Shown here in pieces: positions 11,581 to 26,950 of a stretch of 64,000 bases of DNA. Source of the stretch: a phage; sequence record PZ386955.1. The stretch is one strand, 5' to 3'. How positions within the stretch are numbered: the stretch's first letter is position 1; the number at the start of each line of letters is the position of its first letter. The notes under the pieces were generated by a model. That model was not told where the DNA came from and did not search any database. It saw only the letters and a program-made list of their open reading frames with translations. The translations under genes were made by a program, and so were the position numbers.

Positions 11581-13191
11581 ATGAAATACACGATTTATGG
11601 TGATATTGTAAGTGTAAATAAAGATATGGGCGTGGAATCTAACTATCTTCCACCTGGATTCTATACTGTTAGTCGTGATCCCCTTGGCAATTATTTTTTA
11701 AGCCGTGGTAATCTAACAGGTGTACCGGATGTTCTGTATGGTGAAACAGAAAAACGAGCAAATCACGTTATCCGTACATTCCATCGCCGGAGTGCACAAG
11801 GTAAAAATACAGGCTTGCTTCTGACAGGAACTAAGGGTAGTGGTAAAACTATGTTAGCCAAACTCATTAGTCGTGATCTTGTAGAAGAAGGTATTCCAAC
11901 TATTATGGTTACTCAAGCCTACAGTGATGCTAATTTCATTGAACTTATTAGCAAGATCACCGACAAAGCAGTGATTATTTTTGACGAGTTTGATAAAGTA
12001 TATGAGAAGAAACAAGATCAAGAAGCACTTCTCACTTTGTTAGATGGTACTGGCAGTGGTAATAAACTGTTTATTCTAACTAAAAACAGTGGCTTTATCT
12101 CTGAATTCTTTCTAAATCGTCCTAGTCGTGTGTTTTATAATTTTAATTATGATAAAATCTCACTAGAAACTATGATTGACTATTTAGATAAAAACCTGGA
12201 TAACAAAGCACACTTTGATAATTTCCAAAGACTTTGGGATGTAAGTTTAGAGTTGTCCTTTGATGTGATCCAAGGTATAGTAGAAGAACTTAATTTCTAC
12301 CCTGATTTATCCTTTAAAGAATGCATCTCTATGATGGGCGTTTCTTTGGGTGGTGGTAATAAATGGGATACTACAAGTATTAACAATTTTAAACGTGGTA
12401 GCGGTTGTCCACAATGTAAGAGGGAGAGACAAACAATGTCCGACGATCAACATATTGCAGATTTCTTTTCTACAGGGGAATTTAAGGAAGGCACTATCTT
12501 CACCAATACAGGGAAACGTAACAAGCGTGATGCAGTATGGATGGTTGAGTGTCCTGTTTGCTCCCATGATGAATATGTTCAAGCAGGTGTTTGTGATGGT
12601 AAATTTTACTCTGCAGGACATAACCTTAAACAAGGGTATATTCCGTGTCGTTGTGGGAACTATCAGTATACAGAAGACCAGATCACCTATAGGGTAAAAA
12701 AGGAAGTAGAAGGGAAAGGGTATGTCTGGGTAGATTGGATTACCAAACCCTCTTCTATAGGTAAGTTTAAATATCTTTGTCTTGTGCATGGTGAGCAGAT
12801 AGGGAGTGCTCGTAATTTATTAAGCCTCGGTCAAGGTTGTCCACAGTGTGCTGGTCATAATCAACAGCAATTATATATTAATATTGTTAAAGATAATGAT
12901 ATTATAGTTGCTCTTAAGTTTGGTATATCTAAAGATAGCGATAGACGATTAAACGGTCAAAATAGCCGTAATCTGTTTTTTATGGAGCGTATTTGTTTAT
13001 ATGATTTTAGCACAGTGAAACAATGTAGGGCTGCTGAAAGAGCTATAAAGAAAAAATTAAAAACTGGTATTTTAACGGCAAGAGAGTTGAAAGATGGTTA
13101 TACAGAAACAGTAAGTGTTTCTGATTTGGAAAATCTTCAAAAAATTATTACACAATATGGTGGCAAATTAGTATACAGTAAGGAGATGTAA
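11581..13191 (+). CDS. AAA-type P-loop ATPase fused to Zn-ribbon repeats and a GIY-YIG-like (T5orf172-like) C-terminal domain
   Basis: Walker A GTKGSGKT, Walker B IIFDEFD; three Cys motifs (GCPQC, CPVC..C, GCPQC); C-terminus YINIVKD..KFGIS..RRL..GYTE resembles GIY-YIG family (tentative). Confidence 0.6.
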   Translation: MKYTIYGDIVSVNKDMGVESNYLPPGFYTVSRDPLGNYFLSRGNLTGVPDVLYGETEKRANHVIRTFHRRSAQGKNTGLLLTGTKGSGKTMLAKLISRDLVEEGIPTIMVTQAYSDANFIELISKITDKAVIIFDEFDKVYEKKQDQEALLTLLDGTGSGNKLFILTKNSGFISEFFLNRPSRVFYNFNYDKISLETMIDYLDKNLDNKAHFDNFQRLWDVSLELSFDVIQGIVEELNFYPDLSFKECISMMGVSLGGGNKWDTTSINNFKRGSGCPQCKRERQTMSDDQHIADFFSTGEFKEGTIFTNTGKRNKRDAVWMVECPVCSHDEYVQAGVCDGKFYSAGHNLKQGYIPCRCGNYQYTEDQITYRVKKEVEGKGYVWVDWITKPSSIGKFKYLCLVHGEQIGSARNLLSLGQGCPQCAGHNQQQLYINIVKDNDIIVALKFGISKDSDRRLNGQNSRNLFFMERICLYDFSTVKQCRAAERAIKKKLKTGILTARELKDGYTETVSVSDLENLQKIITQYGGKLVYSKEM

Positions 13192-13743
13192 ATGCGGATT
13201 ACTGATAAGTATGTGTTCTTCTTCTCGGCAAAAGATGAATTTAGCAACTGGTATCTATCATCTTTTATTGAACCTTTAGCTCCCAAGTATAATAATTCTA
13301 TTACAAGTTCTGTTGAATTTACTTGTGTGGAACAATATATGATGTGGAGAAAAGCATGTTTGTTTTATGATTACAACATTGCATCTTCTATTTTAACCGG
13401 AGATCTAAGATATACAGGAGAAAAAGAACAGGCATATTATAAGCGACTAGGCAGATTAGTTAAAGATTATGATGAAGATACCTGGGCTTCTTTACGGGAG
13501 AAGATTGTCAAGCGTGGTTTGTATCTTAAATACACACAAAATGAAGATCTCAAAAATAAACTTATAGCTTACGCAGATAAGGAGTTTGTAGAGGCAAGTC
13601 CTTATGATTCTATTTATGGTATCAAAATGGGGATGTGGGATCGGGACGTGGAAAATAAGGATTGTTGGAAAGGACAAAATCTTTTAGGAAAATGGCATAC
13701 AGACCTTGCTGTTTATCTAAAATCACAATCTGATATTTCCTGA
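13192..13743 (+). CDS. NADAR (YbiA-like) domain protein
   Basis: FFFSAKDEFSNWY..VEFTCVEQYMMWRKA..LGRLV..W..GQNLLGKWHTDLA pattern; start overlaps upstream stop (TAAATG). Confidence 0.65.
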   Translation: MRITDKYVFFFSAKDEFSNWYLSSFIEPLAPKYNNSITSSVEFTCVEQYMMWRKACLFYDYNIASSILTGDLRYTGEKEQAYYKRLGRLVKDYDEDTWASLREKIVKRGLYLKYTQNEDLKNKLIAYADKEFVEASPYDSIYGIKMGMWDRDVENKDCWKGQNLLGKWHTDLAVYLKSQSDIS

Positions 13744-13961
13744 TATTTTGAAAATTTTTACTTTTATAAAAAGGGGTGTGGGTTTCATGTACGGAAATCC
13801 ACCCTCTGAATAATATATCCAGAGTAAATATTATTCTGTACTCTGTTAATAAAGTATTTAATTTGTTTGTTGGACTATGGTATCTGATCTTTAAAAGGCA
13901 TACTATCTCTTAACTACTATTTATAACAGAACAGTAAAATCATTTTTATAAAAAGGACAAA

Positions 13962-14165
13962 ATTATTTAAAGTTTTTACAGATTTTTGGATACAAATTTT
14001 GAAAATGAAAAGTTCAAGTTTGGTCAAAATTATTTAAAGTTTTTGTACGTATTTCTATCCAGATTTTGAAAATGAAAACTTCAATTTTTTAAAAATTCCC
14101 CAGTTTATTTAAAGTTTTTTTGCCTTTTTCCGTAGAAAAATCAAAAATGAAAAGTTCAATTTCGT
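13962..14165. repeat. three imperfect ~70-bp direct repeats (iteron-like)
   Basis: ATTTAAAGTTTTT ... TTGAAAATGAAAAGTTCAA repeated at ~13962, ~14029 and ~14105. Confidence 0.6.
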
Positions 14166-14180
14166 GTTTTTATAGGTGTG

Positions 14181-14199
14181 TGTATGATAATCATTCTCA
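14181..14199. promoter_or_regulatory. Fur-box-like motif, copy 1
   Basis: TGATAATCATTCTC resembles Fur consensus GATAATGATAATCATTATC; followed by GAGAATGAGAAT and a TGAGAAtttTTCTCA palindrome. Confidence 0.35.
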
Positions 14200-14505
14200 G
14201 TAAGAGAATGAGAATCGTTAGCAAATGAGAATTTTTCTCATTTAGAGAATAACGCGCAGGGGTGGTGTTTGTCTCGCGCTCCCGTGTCCCCTCGCCATAC
14301 AATAAGAATAGCATAACCAACAACAAAAGCAAGCGATTATTTCTATCTTTACATTTCTTTACAAATTTATTTTAGACGAGCTACCGGCGATCAACCTTCC
14401 AACCAGTAGTGCCCTGGTATGTTAGCCCCGCCTTTACGCCGTGGGGGTGGCGCTTCCTCTTCTGTATGTAAAACAGTATAAGCCCGATCCCTGGGCTTGT
14501 CAAGA

Positions 14506-14772
14506 TTATTTTTTGTTTTCTTGCCAGGATAGGACACCTAACCAAAAATACATGTCGCCCCGCGCCCCTGGCGGGATCTTGCTTTCCCCGCCGCCACTGC
14601 AAGCCCATAGATAACCATTTGCGAACGTATCAAAATGATCTATCTCTTCCACCTTATGATCGCCCAGGTTGAGAACGGTTTCAACCTTTAAGCCCGTTGC
14701 GCTTGCTACCTGGTGCACCGTGCCGCCTTGCCAGCCCAATGAGTGCATAAGGTGTAAAGTAGTATTTGTCAT
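14506..14772 (-). CDS. hypothetical protein in GC-rich island
   Basis: 88 aa minus-strand ORF inside plus-strand region, with its own minus-strand promoter, hairpin GCGCCAACCAGGGCGC and RBS AAAGAAAGGG. Confidence 0.4.
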   Translation of the reverse strand: MTNTTLHLMHSLGWQGGTVHQVASATGLKVETVLNLGDHKVEEIDHFDTFANGYLWACSGGGESKIPPGARGDMYFWLGVLSWQENKK

Positions 14773-14850
14773 GGTATCGCCCTTTCTTTGATGTGCGCCC
14801 TGGTTGGCGCGGTAGAAAGATAATAGCCCTTTCCTTTATAGATAGCAAGC
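14773..14850 (-). promoter_or_regulatory. inverted PeSL-like unit (promoter + stem-loop) for ORF 14506..14772
   Basis: Minus-strand TTGCTA-N17-TATTAT followed by GC hairpin and RBS. Confidence 0.4.
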
Positions 14851-15143
14851 AAAAAAGAAATGAAAAAAGATTAAAAAAGGGGGTTGACGTTCCTCACCTG
14901 GTAGCGTATTATTCATCTTGTCGAGGGGGGCGAGGCACAACGACAATAAACAAAAGGAGGGCGCAATGTAGGACGGGCAAAGGTGAGGATCTCCATAATC
15001 CACCGTCACAATAACATTACTTATAAAAGGTTGATAACGATGATCAAGAAAGAAAACAGCTTGACGGTTGGAACGATTAACGCTATCATTCTAGCCGTTC
15101 CATTTTGGATTGTAGTAGCGGTTATTATCTTTTAAAAATATTC

Positions 15144-15200
15144 TTGACAACGTTTTTTAATCTGATAAGATGTATCACATAGGGCGGCAATAGTGCCGCT
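15144..15200 (+). promoter_or_regulatory. PeSL-type early promoter + 5' stem-loop
   Basis: TTGACA, -10-like hexamer, hairpin GGGCGGCAATAGTGCCGCTC, RBS, ATG at 15224. Confidence 0.6.
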
Positions 15201-15223
15201 CATAACAGAAGAGAGAAATAATC

Positions 15224-18102: not shown

Positions 18103-18197
18103 AGGAGACATAAAAATGAAACATCGTTCGACCTATCTCACAAAACGTTTTAGCTTAGATCATAAATTGGGCTATTACGGAAGAAATAGAAAATAAT

Positions 18198-18257
18198 TTG
18201 ACACTGTTTAAAATTCTGGTATAGTTTATCACATAGGGCGGGAAATGGTTTCCCGCC
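18198..18257 (+). promoter_or_regulatory. PeSL-type promoter + stem-loop
   Basis: TTGACA-N16-TATAGT then GGGCGGGAAATGGTTTCCCGCC. Confidence 0.65.
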
Positions 18258-18279: not shown

Positions 18280-18507
18280 ATGGCTATCGTTATTGTTCGT
18301 GTATCCGGCACGGTTGGAATCTCCCAGGTAGTAGCAGTTATCACCGAGAAGAAAGGGGATGATCTTCACTCTTCCTTGAATAGCTGGGCGGTCGCTAACT
18401 TCGGGCAATGGTCGAGCGTTGAGTACATCGAATCCTACCAGGTGCCAACGATTAGCCTAACCGATCTAAATGTTGATCGCTTGTTGTGCCTGGATGGATT
18501 AAACTAA
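18280..18507 (+). CDS. hypothetical protein
   Basis: 75 aa ORF after PeSL. Confidence 0.6.
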   Translation: MAIVIVRVSGTVGISQVVAVITEKKGDDLHSSLNSWAVANFGQWSSVEYIESYQVPTISLTDLNVDRLLCLDGLN

Positions 18508-18515
18508 AAATAATC

Positions 18516-18573
18516 TTGACAAGATAACTAAAATCAGTAAAATGTAATGCATCGGGCGGCAATAGTGCCGCTC
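18516..18573 (+). promoter_or_regulatory. PeSL-type promoter + stem-loop
   Basis: TTGACA-N16-TAAAAT then GGGCGGCAATAGTGCCGCTC. Confidence 0.65.
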
Positions 18574-18594
18574 ATAGTAAGAGAGATTATCAAG

Positions 18595-21903: not shown

Positions 21904-21963
21904 TTGACACCAGGCAAACAACGTAGTAAAGTTTATCACATAGGGCGGGAAATGGTTTCCCGC
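21904..21963 (+). promoter_or_regulatory. PeSL-type promoter + stem-loop
   Basis: TTGACA-N16-TAAAGT then GGGCGGGAAATGGTTTCCCGC. Confidence 0.65.
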
Positions 21964-21985
21964 TCACAACAAAAGAGAACAAATC

Positions 21986-22203: not shown

Positions 22204-22473
22204 ATGAAAATATCATTGGACGTTGCAATCAAGGCCATCGAATCCGGTTACACCCTGGTAAAAGATGATAAGGCTAAAATAGTGCATCATGTTAACAAGG
22301 AAACAGGCGAAAGCATGATCACATATAAAGCCGCCTACTTTCTCCAATCAGTAGCAGATCCGCGCGTACAGCGCCAGGTCACGGCGGCTATTGCTAAAAA
22401 ATTATGTGCTTTACAGGGCACAAGTTTTAACGAGATCCCGCCGTGTTTTGACTGGTCGAGCTTGAAAAAATAG
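22204..22473 (+). CDS. hypothetical protein
   Basis: 89 aa ORF. Confidence 0.6.
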   Translation: MKISLDVAIKAIESGYTLVKDDKAKIVHHVNKETGESMITYKAAYFLQSVADPRVQRQVTAAIAKKLCALQGTSFNEIPPCFDWSSLKK

Positions 22474-22474
22474 T

Positions 22475-22531
22475 TTGACAAAAATTATAAATCGGGTAGA
22501 ATGTATTTCGTAGGGCGGCAATAGTGCCGCT
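22475..22531 (+). promoter_or_regulatory. PeSL-type promoter + stem-loop
   Basis: TTGACA-N16-TAGAAT then GGGCGGCAATAGTGCCGCTC. Confidence 0.65.
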
Positions 22532-22553
22532 CGCAACTAAAAGAGAAATCATC

Positions 22554-22748
22554 ATGGCGCTTAAAAAACTAACAAGCAATACTCGTTGGGATGAAATCGA
22601 CGGGGAAGTATACATTTTCGCCCGTAAACCAGGTGATCAAAAATGGTCAAAGGCTTTTACTTGTCACCCTGCAACAATAGATCTAATAAAAAGTAAAGGT
22701 TTACGTGAAGCAGTAGCGAGAAGTTTACTGATTCCTTGTAAAAAATAG
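22554..22748 (+). CDS. hypothetical protein
   Basis: Track ORF 22524..22748 trimmed to ATG (MALKKL) downstream of hairpin. Confidence 0.55.
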   Translation: MALKKLTSNTRWDEIDGEVYIFARKPGDQKWSKAFTCHPATIDLIKSKGLREAVARSLLIPCKK

Positions 22749-22749
22749 T

Positions 22750-22811
22750 TTGACAATATGCGGTTATCTGGTAAAGTGTACCACGTAGGGCGGGGCAATA
22801 AGGCAACGCCC
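22750..22811 (+). promoter_or_regulatory. PeSL-type promoter + stem-loop
   Basis: TTGACA-N16-TAAAGT then GC-rich hairpin GGGCGGGGCAATAAGGCAACGCCC. Confidence 0.55.
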
Positions 22812-25191: not shown

Positions 25192-25205
25192 ATAACATTT
25201 CACAC

Positions 25206-25232
25206 CAGGGCGCACAAAGCGCCCTTTCTTTT
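25206..25232 (+). terminator. rho-independent terminator
   Basis: GGGCGC-ACAAA-GCGCCC followed by TTTCTTTT. Confidence 0.6.
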
Positions 25233-25490
25233 ACCTCAATAAAGATGATAGCTTTTACCTATCAAAAACGTTCACCGAAAAAAGTGAATAGATCGCGGTA
25301 TCGAGCTAATCAAGGAGCAGATGAACAACCATACCATGAAGATCATAAGGCGCTTACAACGCGTTTTAGACCGCTTGTTTTTAATTTCTCCATGTAACTA
25401 TCTGGCAAAAACAGCCTTTTTCTTGTCTTTCCTCTTAAATAATAATCATTCTCATTTGTAGCTGATTATTTATGCAATAAACTGAATAAT

Positions 25491-25514
25491 GCAATAATGA
25501 TAATCATTCTTAAC
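25491..25514. promoter_or_regulatory. Fur-box-like motif, copy 2
   Basis: AATAATGATAATCATTCTT, 16 of 19 matches to GATAATGATAATCATTATC; partial copy at 25441-25458. Confidence 0.4.
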
Positions 25515-25885
25515 TTAAGACCATCTAACCTATAAAATAATAAGCTATCTAACTAAATTAAAGCTAATTATCTCACCTTTATTTATAACTTACTGTTACT
25601 ATCTCATTGATAACCTTATATTAAACAACAATAACTAATATAAATCATTACCAAGCTAAAGATAAGCTATCTAACCTTTAAAACTATAACTATAATCTAT
25701 CGAATTGTTGCACAAAGTAACTATTAAATTGTTAGTAACATTACTAAATAATTAATATCCTATCTATTTATGATCTAATCTTTACCTTCCTATCTATTAC
25801 CTAAATAATCATTTCATACAATAACTATAACAAGAAATATAATTCGCAAGCGTATCATTAGCAGCCTATGCCGGACACATAGGCG

Positions 25886-26031
25886 GCTAATAATAACGCA
25901 ACTACACACCCCACATAATAACCATCACCGATAGTTATTATTTGTGCTTATGTAGCTTGCAACAATTGCAAGCGCAACAATATACATGGTATATTGTATC
26001 CCTTACATTGTTGCGGTGCGTTATTATTAGC
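25886..26031. repeat. nested inverted repeats / palindromes in non-coding region
   Basis: Perfect 15-nt arms GCTAATAATAACGCA inverted ~110 bp apart; internal palindromes GCTTGCAA-CAA-TTGCAAGC and ACAATATAC-ATG-GTATATTGT. Confidence 0.6.
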
Positions 26032-26360
26032 TAATGTTTAGAACATTGGCTATAATATAAGCTATCCAATAATAATAAGCTATACAATAATAAACATAGT
26101 GAATAATGACCCCCGATGATCATAATGCGCCACCTTCCAGGGGGCGCTATGTGAACACAAAGAAACCTTTCTTGTCAAGAAAAATATTGCCACTATTGCG
26201 CAAAATTATTTATATCTGAATAGATGATTTTTCATACTATTGCCCCCAATACTATCCCTATTTGTTGCCCTAACTATTGTCATTTGTTGAGCCTACTTTC
26301 TTAAAAGCGCAATAAATCAGAATTATCTTGATTTTTAGGGCGTTTTATAGTATAGAAAAT

Positions 26361-26384
26361 ATGCAAATGATAATCATTATCAGC
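26361..26384. promoter_or_regulatory. Fur-box-like motif, copy 3
   Basis: GCAAATGATAATCATTATC, 17 of 19 matches to Fur consensus. Confidence 0.4.
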
Positions 26385-26548
26385 TATCTTCCACGGGTGG
26401 CACTATTTCACGCAGGATCATTTCATTTGGCAAGGTGTATATAGATGTTTAGACTTGCCAAGCCATTGATTTACTTAGAATTTATCTGTTTTGTTGTGAG
26501 TAGTACCTTTCTTGCTCAGAAAATAATCAAAAGTCTTATAAGTCATTG

Positions 26549-26577
26549 AATGATAATGCAAATGATAATTATTCTCA
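26549..26577. promoter_or_regulatory. Fur-box-like motif, copy 4 (tandem half-sites)
   Basis: GATAATGCAAATGATAATTATTCTC. Confidence 0.35.
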
Positions 26578-26950
26578 TTGATATTTGAGGGGGACGGTCG
26601 GCAGAAATCGGGGGGCGCTGAAAATCGCGTTAAGCACCTCTCGCAAGCGAGCAGTATTTTGCGGCAAGTTATTGATATTATTGACTTTACGCTTATGAAA
26701 AGGGGGTGTGTCGAAATAAATCGGGTATACCGGAAAAATTTTGTGGCATAGATATTTATTTGTCTATATTATGTACAAAGGGGTGTGTTAAAAATAATAG
26801 GTATATATAGAATAATTGATAGGGAATACCTATACTAATTCCTATACTAAATCCTTCATTAATGATGTTTCTATGGTGCTGTTCTTGTAATAGATGAAAA
26901 GACGCTGTATGATGTGTGGCATGAAACGTAAATTTATAAAGGAGTCTGAT

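Follow-up and report, generated by a model that had tools for sequence, protein, structure and literature searches.

Three direct repeats in a conserved non-coding module of phi92-like and related myophages: a candidate replication-origin element

Phages related to phi92, phAPEC8, rV5, PVP-SE1 and CR3 rank with the myoviruses of enterobacteria that are most frequently isolated and used in therapy, and their origin and early DNA transactions are unmapped. The DNA analysed here is a 64,000-nt stretch of one phage record (PZ386955.1; hereafter, the window), whose region under study is 96-98% identical to phi92-like Escherichia coli myophages (Justusliebigvirus, Stephanstirmvirinae). It contains a gene-poor gap of approximately 1.5 kb (13744-15223), which is bordered on the left by a NADAR/YbiA-like gene (13192-13743; Pfam NADAR) and on the right by a long series of small plus-strand genes from 15224 onward. 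Three direct repeats lie in this gap. Some GenBank records label the place "repeat_region" without comment on the repeats, and a literature search found no paper discussing them. A preliminary description, made from the letters alone, took them for sites of a dimeric protein that form either an origin-type iteron array or an operator cluster. In this study, we asked what the repeats are and which function suits them best. The repeats prove to be real and deeply conserved, and our searches turned up no earlier description of them. As an element, the array belongs to a known kind, the repeat-bearing, AT-rich cis-acting site.

Comparison of the units with each other placed repeat unit 1 at 13962-14028, unit 2 at 14029-14103 and unit 3 at 14104-14170. 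The repeats start at about 13962-13964, 14029-14031 and 14104-14106, with start-to-start spacings of 67 and 75 bp, and the three ~70-bp direct repeats first described are therefore borne out as units of 67-75 bp. Over 79 nt, unit 2 is 73% and unit 3 is 71% identical to unit 1. Unit 2 has an extra TTTTTTAAAAATTCCCC tail, which is kept in other Stephanstirmvirinae. Each unit is headed by a 15-nt box A, TTATTTAAAGTTTTT, in which a semi-palindromic TTTAAA core is followed by a T-tract (plus strand; 13963-13977, 14030-14044, and 14105-14119). Box A is exact in all three units; at two or fewer mismatches it has five matches in the window, versus a shuffle mean of 1.8. Box B, TTGAAAATGAAAAGTTCAA, follows on the same strand (13999-14017, 14066-14084, and 14141-14159). 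Its three copies carry 0, 1 and 2 mismatches, and three matches were reached in none of 100 shuffles. The gap between the boxes is 21 nt, not about 25 nt as first stated. Neither box was found elsewhere in the window or in outra, the closest relative (complete genome, 145,482 bp), where box A and the unit are confined to the array locus.

The inverted repeat TTGAA...TTCAA, which had been reported inside each unit, carries no weight as evidence. Its left arm is broken in the third copy of box B (TCAAA), it is absent in other genera, and a 5-nt inverted repeat with a spacer of 3-15 nt occurs in 91% of shuffled 67-nt units. Such a chance-level, lineage-specific dyad, not intact in all units, does not make the architecture of a site for a dimeric protein. 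In Tr1, KP2025, L152 and Phapecoctavirus, the box B position reads AAAAnnnAAAATnTAAAGTTT, with no inverted repeat there. The AAAAnnnAAAATnTAAAGTTT form looks like the ancestral one, and it resembles a degenerate second box A core 44 bp downstream. Mini-ORFs starting from the ATG of box B were considered and rejected, as this ATG is missing in other genera.

In composition, the array stands apart from its surroundings. It is the 200 bp of lowest GC content in the 64-kb window (20.0%) and the second-lowest-GC window across the whole outra genome. It contains 19 A/T tracts of 4 nt or more, whereas other windows of that size average 3.8; a test for helical phasing of these tracts (10-11 bp) found none. 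Sequence variation was compared among eight Justusliebigvirus genomes. Only 3 of 208 array positions vary, all of them outside the boxes, compared with 27 of 214 in the left spacer and 10 of 81 in the Fur-like zone on the right. In all eight genomes, each of the two boxes has exactly three copies. Within this genus, array variability is nine-fold below that of the adjacent spacer, which indicates that the array is under strong purifying selection.

The comparison was then widened with a 296-nt query taken from directly right of the array. It matched 248 phage records in Stephanstirmvirinae and Vequintavirinae, with hosts that include Escherichia, Klebsiella, Salmonella, Cronobacter, Pectobacterium, Erwinia, and Serratia. 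For IMG/VR, a scan with box A, an AT-rich 15-mer, matched unrelated contigs by chance, and a scan with the core motif worked instead. No homologues were found in E. coli genomes or in plasmids, and bacterial genome contigs gave chance-level matches in unrelated taxa only. The ~1.5-kb non-coding module is present in about 250 phage records, and its order is the same in every genus read: TGATATTT repeats, a spacer, three direct repeats of ~65-80 bp, one to five Fur-box-like palindromes (AATGAGAATCATTCTCATT), a GAAT(A/G)(A/G)C..GCA motif with a GC-rich segment, two CTTTACA repeats, a very conserved core of ~100 nt, and a leftward promoter. In rV5, the array, the palindromes and the GC segment are kept and the core is lost. 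The preliminary description would have been undone by repeats that are absent or scrambled in relatives; they are conserved instead. Three clear units were seen in Justusliebigvirus, Tr1, KP2025, the L152-like phages, the Kashira group, Seunavirus, Certrevirus, Mydovirus, and Henunavirus. Phapecoctavirus has a degenerate middle unit, and rV5 has two clear units and one degenerate unit.

Two features of this comparison bear on function. One is the span of the array. The distance from the first to the third box is 141-145 bp in 14 of 16 genomes, and it stays constant despite shifting offsets of the middle unit (66/75, 75/67, and 78/63). Two relatives have the outer boxes only, and their span is still 142-143 bp. 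A span of ~142 bp that is held with the middle unit moved or lost points to a constraint of DNA geometry. The other is the sequence of the box. Stephanstirmvirinae have TTATTTAAAG; most Vequintavirinae have (G)GT(A/T)CTCGATCG, often with a second GATC ~21 bp further on; Henunavirus has ACT(C/T)GA(A/G)(A/G)GG; and two metagenomic relatives have GGTCGTAGGA. A T-tract follows every box type, and the cores are short palindromes (TTTAAA, CGATCG). These four box types track the lineage of the phage, not the host: E. coli phage 4MG has CTCGATCG, whereas the phi92-like phages of the same host have TTATTTAAAG. Since the boxes differ among phages of one host, the most likely explanation is that a partner encoded by the phage co-evolves with the repeats, as initiators do with iterons. 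The neighbouring Fur-like palindromes are constant across hosts and would therefore suit a conserved host protein, such as Fur.

The rest of the module was examined for signals that could act on the array. At the left edge, two TGATATTT direct repeats (13731-13748, plus strand) overlap the end of the NADAR/YbiA-like gene. At the corresponding place, (C)TGATATTTG occurs two or three times in Tr1, KP2025, 4MG, CR3, phiTE, BIS47, and rV5. An identity of upstream repeats in phiTE and CR3 with pseudo-ToxI was rejected, because the pseudo-ToxI of phiTE lies at 106.7 kb, between genes 202 and 203 (PMC3475682). A leftward intrinsic terminator is predicted on the minus strand at 13765-13806, where GGGUGGAUUUC..GAAACCCACACCCC is followed by UUUUUAU (fold z = -2.3). 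In Tr1, its hairpin is kept with compensatory changes and a U-run; KP2025 is less clear, and consensus scans did not pick up a leftward terminator in CR3 and 4MG. On the other side of the array, the palindromes TATGATAATCATTCTCAGT and AATGAGAATTTTTCTCATT and further half-sites occupy 14183-14242 and have counterparts in all genera examined. Relatives have four or five such palindromes, and the window is short of ~50 bp of them. The best Fur-like boxes of the relatives are within two or three mismatches of the 19-bp Fur consensus GATAATGATAATCATTATC. The window palindromes at 14183-14242 and 25438-26579 resemble this consensus, which the three repeats themselves do not match. Next come the conserved GAAT(A/G)(A/G)CnnGCA motif and the GC-rich segment (14247-14304), which would give G-clusters (GGGG, GGG) in a leftward RNA; such G-clusters in the predicted leftward RNA are found in all genera. 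The non-coding gap, the adjoining Fur-like motif and the GC-rich island had thus all been described correctly. A rightward Fur-controlled promoter before the GC segment (TTGAAT-18-CAGAAT) was rejected, as position 2 of its -10 element is not conserved.

Two sigma70-type promoters are predicted 140-500 nt upstream of the array, both leftward. P1 (14475-14503, minus strand) is a strong candidate, with TTGACA-17-TATACT matching the consensus at 11 of 12 positions and an A-rich upstream element. This promoter mirrors the cassette of the rightward early promoters, and its hexamers are kept in KP2025, Tr1, CR3 and 4MG despite differing flanks. P2 (14305-14332, minus strand; TTGCTT-16-TATTCT) is weak in the window, at 7 of 12. 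Its equivalents reach 9 of 12 in CR3 (TTGCAA-17-TATATT) and in 4MG (TTGATC-16-TATTAT with TG). A third leftward promoter lies directly beside the array in 4MG, and the CR3 region has six promoter-like sites versus 1.4 expected. No credible plus-strand promoter facing the array was found. Between P2 and P1 are two CTTTACA direct repeats 10 bp apart (14347-14363), kept in all genera, and the highly conserved core with the invariant CCGGCGAT (14369-14470). Together, P1, P2 and the terminator predict an early leftward non-coding transcript of ~540-700 nt that runs to 13765 and crosses the G-clusters, the palindromes and the array.

The gap has a single annotated ORF, a small one on the minus strand that corresponds to gp224 of phi92 (14506-14772, 88 aa). 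It has a conserved N-terminal helix-turn-helix-like motif, LMxxLGWQGGTVHQVAxATGL, and gave no match in Pfam or NCBIfam. The ORF adjoins the module in many genera, not in all. The neighbouring genes that are possible candidates for an initiator differ between the subfamilies. Stephanstirmvirinae encode, 2 kb upstream, an AAA+ ATPase whose similarity to Hda, DnaC and clamp-loader proteins is weak. Vequintavirinae encode an unannotated, fast-evolving protein of ~275 aa directly upstream, which has no homologue in the phi92-like genome. A recognisable initiator gene conserved beside the array in both subfamilies was looked for and not found. Searches for other signals were also negative: there is no DnaA consensus site in 13744-15223, no IHF consensus in the array, no match to Rfam 15 in the array or core at E values up to 1, and no tRNA in the window by ARAGORN. 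Within the units, no sigma70-like promoter was detected on the plus strand and only a weak 9/12 match on the minus strand.

How do these features compare with known origins? The primary origin of T7 consists of the tandem promoters phi1.1A/B and an AT-rich region, and oriF and oriG of T4 consist of a promoter and a downstream unwinding element at which an R-loop provides the primer. The module is similar in having tandem promoters (two; three in 4MG) aimed at an AT-rich segment a few hundred bp downstream, with matches of 11/12 for P1 and 7-9/12 for P2, and in having an element that is unique in the genome and an RNA that is G-rich ahead of the AT-rich part. It differs in that its predicted promoters are of the host sigma70 type, its AT-rich part is made of three ~70-bp repeats with lineage-specific boxes, and Fur-like palindromes lie in between. 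Iteron origins, such as lambda ori and those of the plasmids pSC101, P1 and R6K, typically have repeats of 17-22 bp. They resemble the array in having direct repeats in a large AT-rich non-coding region, semi-palindromic boxes beside A/T tracts and a sequence that co-varies with lineage. Unlike them, the array has units of 67-75 bp with 15-nt boxes, no two-turn register (67 and 75 bp are not multiples of one helical phase), no recognisable Rep gene adjacent in both subfamilies and no DnaA or IHF sites. The origin of the PLE satellite, with its RepA_N iterons, is a further example of the iteron class (PMC7145576). The E. coli oriC is another point of reference, in that its DNA-unwinding element is made of three AT-rich 13-mers. 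Here too, three AT-rich repeats form the segment of lowest stability, and the Vequintavirinae boxes, with paired GATC ~21 bp apart, are reminiscent of origins controlled by Dam and SeqA. The array repeats differ in being five times longer and 67-75 bp apart; the version in the window is without GATC, and DnaA boxes are missing.

On this basis, we tentatively propose that the repeats are a cis-acting DNA element and may form the unwinding and initiator-binding part of a transcription-activated replication origin. This reading is possible, somewhat short of probable, and it is the best supported because the array is unique, of lowest GC content, dense in A/T tracts and under purifying selection, has about three copies and a fixed span in two subfamilies, and combines a box that tracks lineage with conserved inward promoters. 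Early in infection, host RNA polymerase would start at P1 (14503 to 14475) and P2 (14332 to 14305). It would pass the GC-rich segment, yielding RNA with G-clusters, and then the Fur-box-like palindromes. Transcription would next enter the 200-bp array, the most easily melted DNA of the region, and end at the terminator near 13765. The array may be opened by this transcription through negative supercoiling, an R-loop primer, or both. For such a primer or R-loop, the G-clusters would be indirect evidence only. A phage-encoded protein would recognise the lineage-specific box A that heads each unit over the fixed span of ~142 bp; once bound, it would organise the DNA and recruit the phage primase-helicase and polymerase. 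Protein binding at the array, melting there, RNA priming, and the start of replication there are the steps that we infer.

Several observations stand against an origin. The units are about three times the typical iteron length, DnaA and IHF sites are lacking, and no recognisable adjacent initiator is conserved in both subfamilies. The A/T tracts are unphased, P2 is weak in the window, and the cumulative GC-skew minimum is 5.3 kb left of the array, between the minus-strand cluster of replication genes and the plus-strand early genes. GC skew was rejected as an indicator of the origin, as it tracks the direction of transcription; the authors of the rV5 paper, who tried skew analysis for the origin without success, found the same (PMC3606486). 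For the preliminary description, the outcome is mixed. Its structural argument was wrong, and its functional guess, an origin-type array, is the best-supported hypothesis; the origin part holds up as the leading reading, and the textbook iteron part fails on unit length (67-75 versus 17-22 bp). If the array is an origin, it would offer a handle for phage engineering, including replicon-based vectors, and for explaining incompatibility or interference among co-infecting relatives, and it would establish a type in which long repeat units occur together with tandem host promoters and Fur-like sites. The array is a precise, testable candidate of 200 bp whose copy number, span and lineage-specific boxes are defined.

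Other explanations have to be weighed against the origin. As a source of the repeats, neutral tandem duplication in junk DNA or chance in AT-rich sequence is in keeping with an AT-rich, low-complexity sequence and with an inverted repeat at chance level. It does not account for the threefold exact 15-mers, the shuffle result for box B or the retention of copy number and span in two subfamilies, and it is effectively refuted by the conservation and the low variability. A function without any role in replication deserves more attention. Here the array would be a platform on which a phage regulator or nucleoid-type protein binds in order to control or insulate transcription; it might silence or roadblock the leftward transcripts from P1/P2, for instance, or keep the upstream operon apart from the early block. 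The lineage-specific repeated boxes and their fixed span point to a phage protein with sequence specificity or to an ordered nucleoprotein complex; the array lies between converging transcription units, a plus-strand operon that ends at 13743 and the leftward P1/P2; Fur-like palindromes of operator type adjoin it; and gp224, a small helix-turn-helix-like protein, is encoded within the module. However, the recognition region of gp224 is near-identical among phages with different boxes, and several genera with the array lack the gene. The box has no further occurrence in the genome, which argues against a general regulatory motif, and a maximally AT-rich array of three units and ~200 bp exceeds known operators in elaborateness. 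No credible sigma70 promoter overlaps the units, and the classical operator cluster considered earlier is therefore not indicated; the lambda OR/OL operators differ in the same way, as the array has no palindromic sites overlapping a promoter. We consider such a platform unlikely, though somewhat less so than the two readings that follow. The repeats could also act as RNA, as three AU-rich modules in the 3' half of the leftward non-coding transcript of ~540-700 nt, possibly sequestering a host nuclease or RNA-binding protein as a sponge or decoy. The predicted promoters and terminator delimit a unit of this kind, and phages of the group do use repetitive non-coding RNA against host defence, as with the pseudo-ToxI of phiTE at another locus (PMC3475682). 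Against an RNA function, neither the single units nor the array as a whole, on either strand, has a folding energy that sets it apart from shuffles (z from -1.2 to +1.0), the box cores are semi-palindromic as DNA, the ~142-bp span kept even without the middle unit is a constraint on DNA geometry, and the terminator is clear only in the window and Tr1. The units of 67-75 nt are also unlike the ~36-nt RNA repeats of ToxI and pseudo-ToxI. An RNA function appears rather improbable.

The position of the array in the genome raises a further alternative, a boundary or genome-entry element similar to the injection stop signal of T5. In T5, this region is conserved and untranslated, with many direct and inverted repeats, among them repeats of 66 bp, and with boxes for the host protein DnaA (Davison, bioRxiv 10.1101/866236). 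For the close relative BME3, a direct terminal repeat (DTR) of 342 bp was reported from PhageTerm (PMC12210895). The DTR-L annotated in BME3 maps to 26363-26704 of the window with 97.4% identity; this genome end comes from a single PhageTerm report on a record with a muddled assembly. With the DTR mapped there, the array is ~12.6 kb, or 8.6% of the genome, from this reported physical end, compared with 7.9% for the first-step transfer of T5 (10.1101/866236). The DTR segment sits in a second AT-rich non-coding region (25200-26890) with Fur-like boxes, and its left edge coincides with a canonical Fur-like box, GCAAATGATAATCATTATC. Genome-wide, Fur-like boxes are confined to this region and the array module, and the AAAGGGGTGTG motif is common to both. 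Depending on the annotation, the interval between array and end contains ~25-35 small plus-strand ORFs with repeated sigma70 cassettes. CR3 has a similar layout, in which the module is followed by 11.7 kb of small genes and a second non-coding region with five or six Fur-like boxes. The array, together with the Fur-like boxes, would then form the inner boundary of a ~12.6-kb terminal block made up of small early genes and would pause or regulate DNA entry, or separate the block from the rest, through a bound host or phage protein. The resemblance to T5 includes more than 1 kb of untranslated DNA, dense direct repeats (~66 bp in T5), palindromes, boxes for host proteins, a place ~8% from the end at the inner edge of small early genes, and a partner repeat region nearer the end with the same boxes. 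The shared Fur-like boxes and AAAGGGGTGTG motif and the 8.6% position also fit such a boundary element, and they count against the origin. The differences are also considerable. The terminal repeat is 342 bp and not about 10 kb, the array lies outside it, and the boxes are Fur-like rather than DnaA boxes. The phages are myoviruses, for which two-step injection has never been reported, the early genes read toward the end, and lineage-specific boxes suggest a phage protein, which would be absent before the first phage genes are expressed. A boundary element is therefore doubtful in our estimation. A more specific version, in which the array, the Fur-like palindromes and the boxes at the end form a myovirus genome-entry checkpoint as the counterpart of the T5 injection stop, is less likely still, as is its corollary that ~8.6% of the genome (~25-35 small takeover genes) would enter or be expressed before a repeat-bound protein, possibly with host Fur, holds back or licenses the rest. 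If a T5-like boundary element were correct, staged genome delivery would extend to contractile-tailed phages.

Record starts near the array were also considered as a sign of termini and rejected, since they seem to occur at about the chance rate; the record of phi1_175008, which starts beside the array, is circular and was opened arbitrarily. A host-factor screen paper on an rV5-like phage makes no mention of fur, ihf, fis or dam.

Apart from the array, the module yields Fur-like sites at the genome terminus and a covarying structured element without an Rfam family. The latter lies in the conserved core, where RNAalifold on the GC segment and core gave weak covariation overall and only two hairpins, H1 (14399-14421) and H2 (14425-14448), held on inspection. 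There is also an alternative hairpin, H2' (14437-14452), with a T/C-rich run after it on the plus strand. H1 has alternative Watson-Crick pairs at five pair positions, and H2 occurs as GCCCC/GGGGT, GCCAA/TTGGT, GCCAT/ATGGT, and GCCAG/CTGG.

A non-coding core of approximately 100 nt (window 14369-14470) is highly conserved and includes the invariant CCGGCGAT. In the sequence comparison, its identity exceeded 80% as far as Cronobacter and Pectobacterium phages, and a 37-nt piece was still present in Aeromonas phages. Compensatory changes back two hairpins in the core, and one alternative, terminator-like hairpin was also identified. Since the core had no match in Rfam, it is a candidate for a new structured element, either RNA or ssDNA.

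The small minus-strand open reading frame (ORF) at window 14506-14772 encodes a phi92 gp224-like protein with a conserved N-terminal helix-turn-helix-like motif (LMxxLGWQGGTVHQVAxATGL). This ORF accompanies the module, the non-coding region of about 1.5 kb around the repeat array, in many genera, but not in all. Instead of the lineage-specific array, its product may bind the core or the CTTTACA repeats, two conserved copies of which lie between the GC-rich segment and the core. The leftward sigma70 promoter P1, next to the array, is a copy, in inverted orientation, of an early-promoter cassette of about 60-90 bp, which consists of an A-rich upstream element, TTGACA, and an extended -10 element. 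The cassette is found ahead of many small plus-strand genes (window 15133-15223, 18190-18244, 18505-18586, 21934-21978, 22466-22553, and 22741-22800). At window 11581-13191, one ORF of 536 aa combines a phi92 gp221-like AAA+ ATPase with the downstream gp222-like endonuclease, whose domains are CapR and T5orf172. The two are separate genes in alia, phi92, outra, and others; the 536-aa ORF is apparently a deletion fusion in which the C-terminal part of the ATPase was lost.

Only two places in the genome, its large non-coding regions, carry Fur-box-like palindromes (window 14183-14242, 25438-25510, 26363-26381, and 26545-26579). Cronobacter phage CR3 likewise has a pair of regions with such boxes, separated by about 12-13 kb. 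Close relatives carry 2 to 5 Fur-like boxes from the array to the GC-rich segment. Compared with most Justusliebigvirus relatives, window 14166-14246 lacks about 50 bp, equivalent to two or three boxes, from the interval that separates the array from the GC-rich segment.

The second non-coding region (1.7 kb, window 25200-26890) includes the stretch that is lowest in GC in the entire genome of a relative, and it also contains ATAAGCTATC-type repeats. Within it, window 26363-26704 corresponds to the 342-bp segment that has been reported to be phage BME3's direct terminal repeat. The canonical box GCAAATGATAATCATTATC is located exactly at the left edge of this segment, and two matches to the IHF consensus (26459 and 26665) lie inside it. 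The motif AAAGGGGTGTG occurs in three copies, a number reached in only 3 of 100 shuffles. Two copies (window 26700-26710 and 26777-26787) are located at the right-hand boundary of the terminal-repeat segment or close to it; the third (13770-13780) lies at the left boundary of the module that bears the repeats and belongs to the leftward terminator.

Certrevirus phages have an additional pair of direct repeats of about 40 nt (acgtaccatatatgttacataacgggg...) upstream of the three-unit array (L130 1486-1586 in phiTE and L131 1490-1570 in CR3). Their identification as the published pseudo-ToxI locus, a repetitive non-coding RNA locus of phiTE, was rejected; they are not that locus.

Records named "Campylobacter phage" (A150, A145, C3, and A110a) share about 88% identity with the repeat-bearing segment of this E. 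coli phage, and up to 98.6% (A150) with its GC-rich segment. The modules of Acinetobacter phage ABPH49 and Serratia phage Kashira are nearly identical. The host labels of the Campylobacter and Acinetobacter phage records look doubtful (GenBank MG065639, MG065645, MG065656, MG065689, and MH533020).
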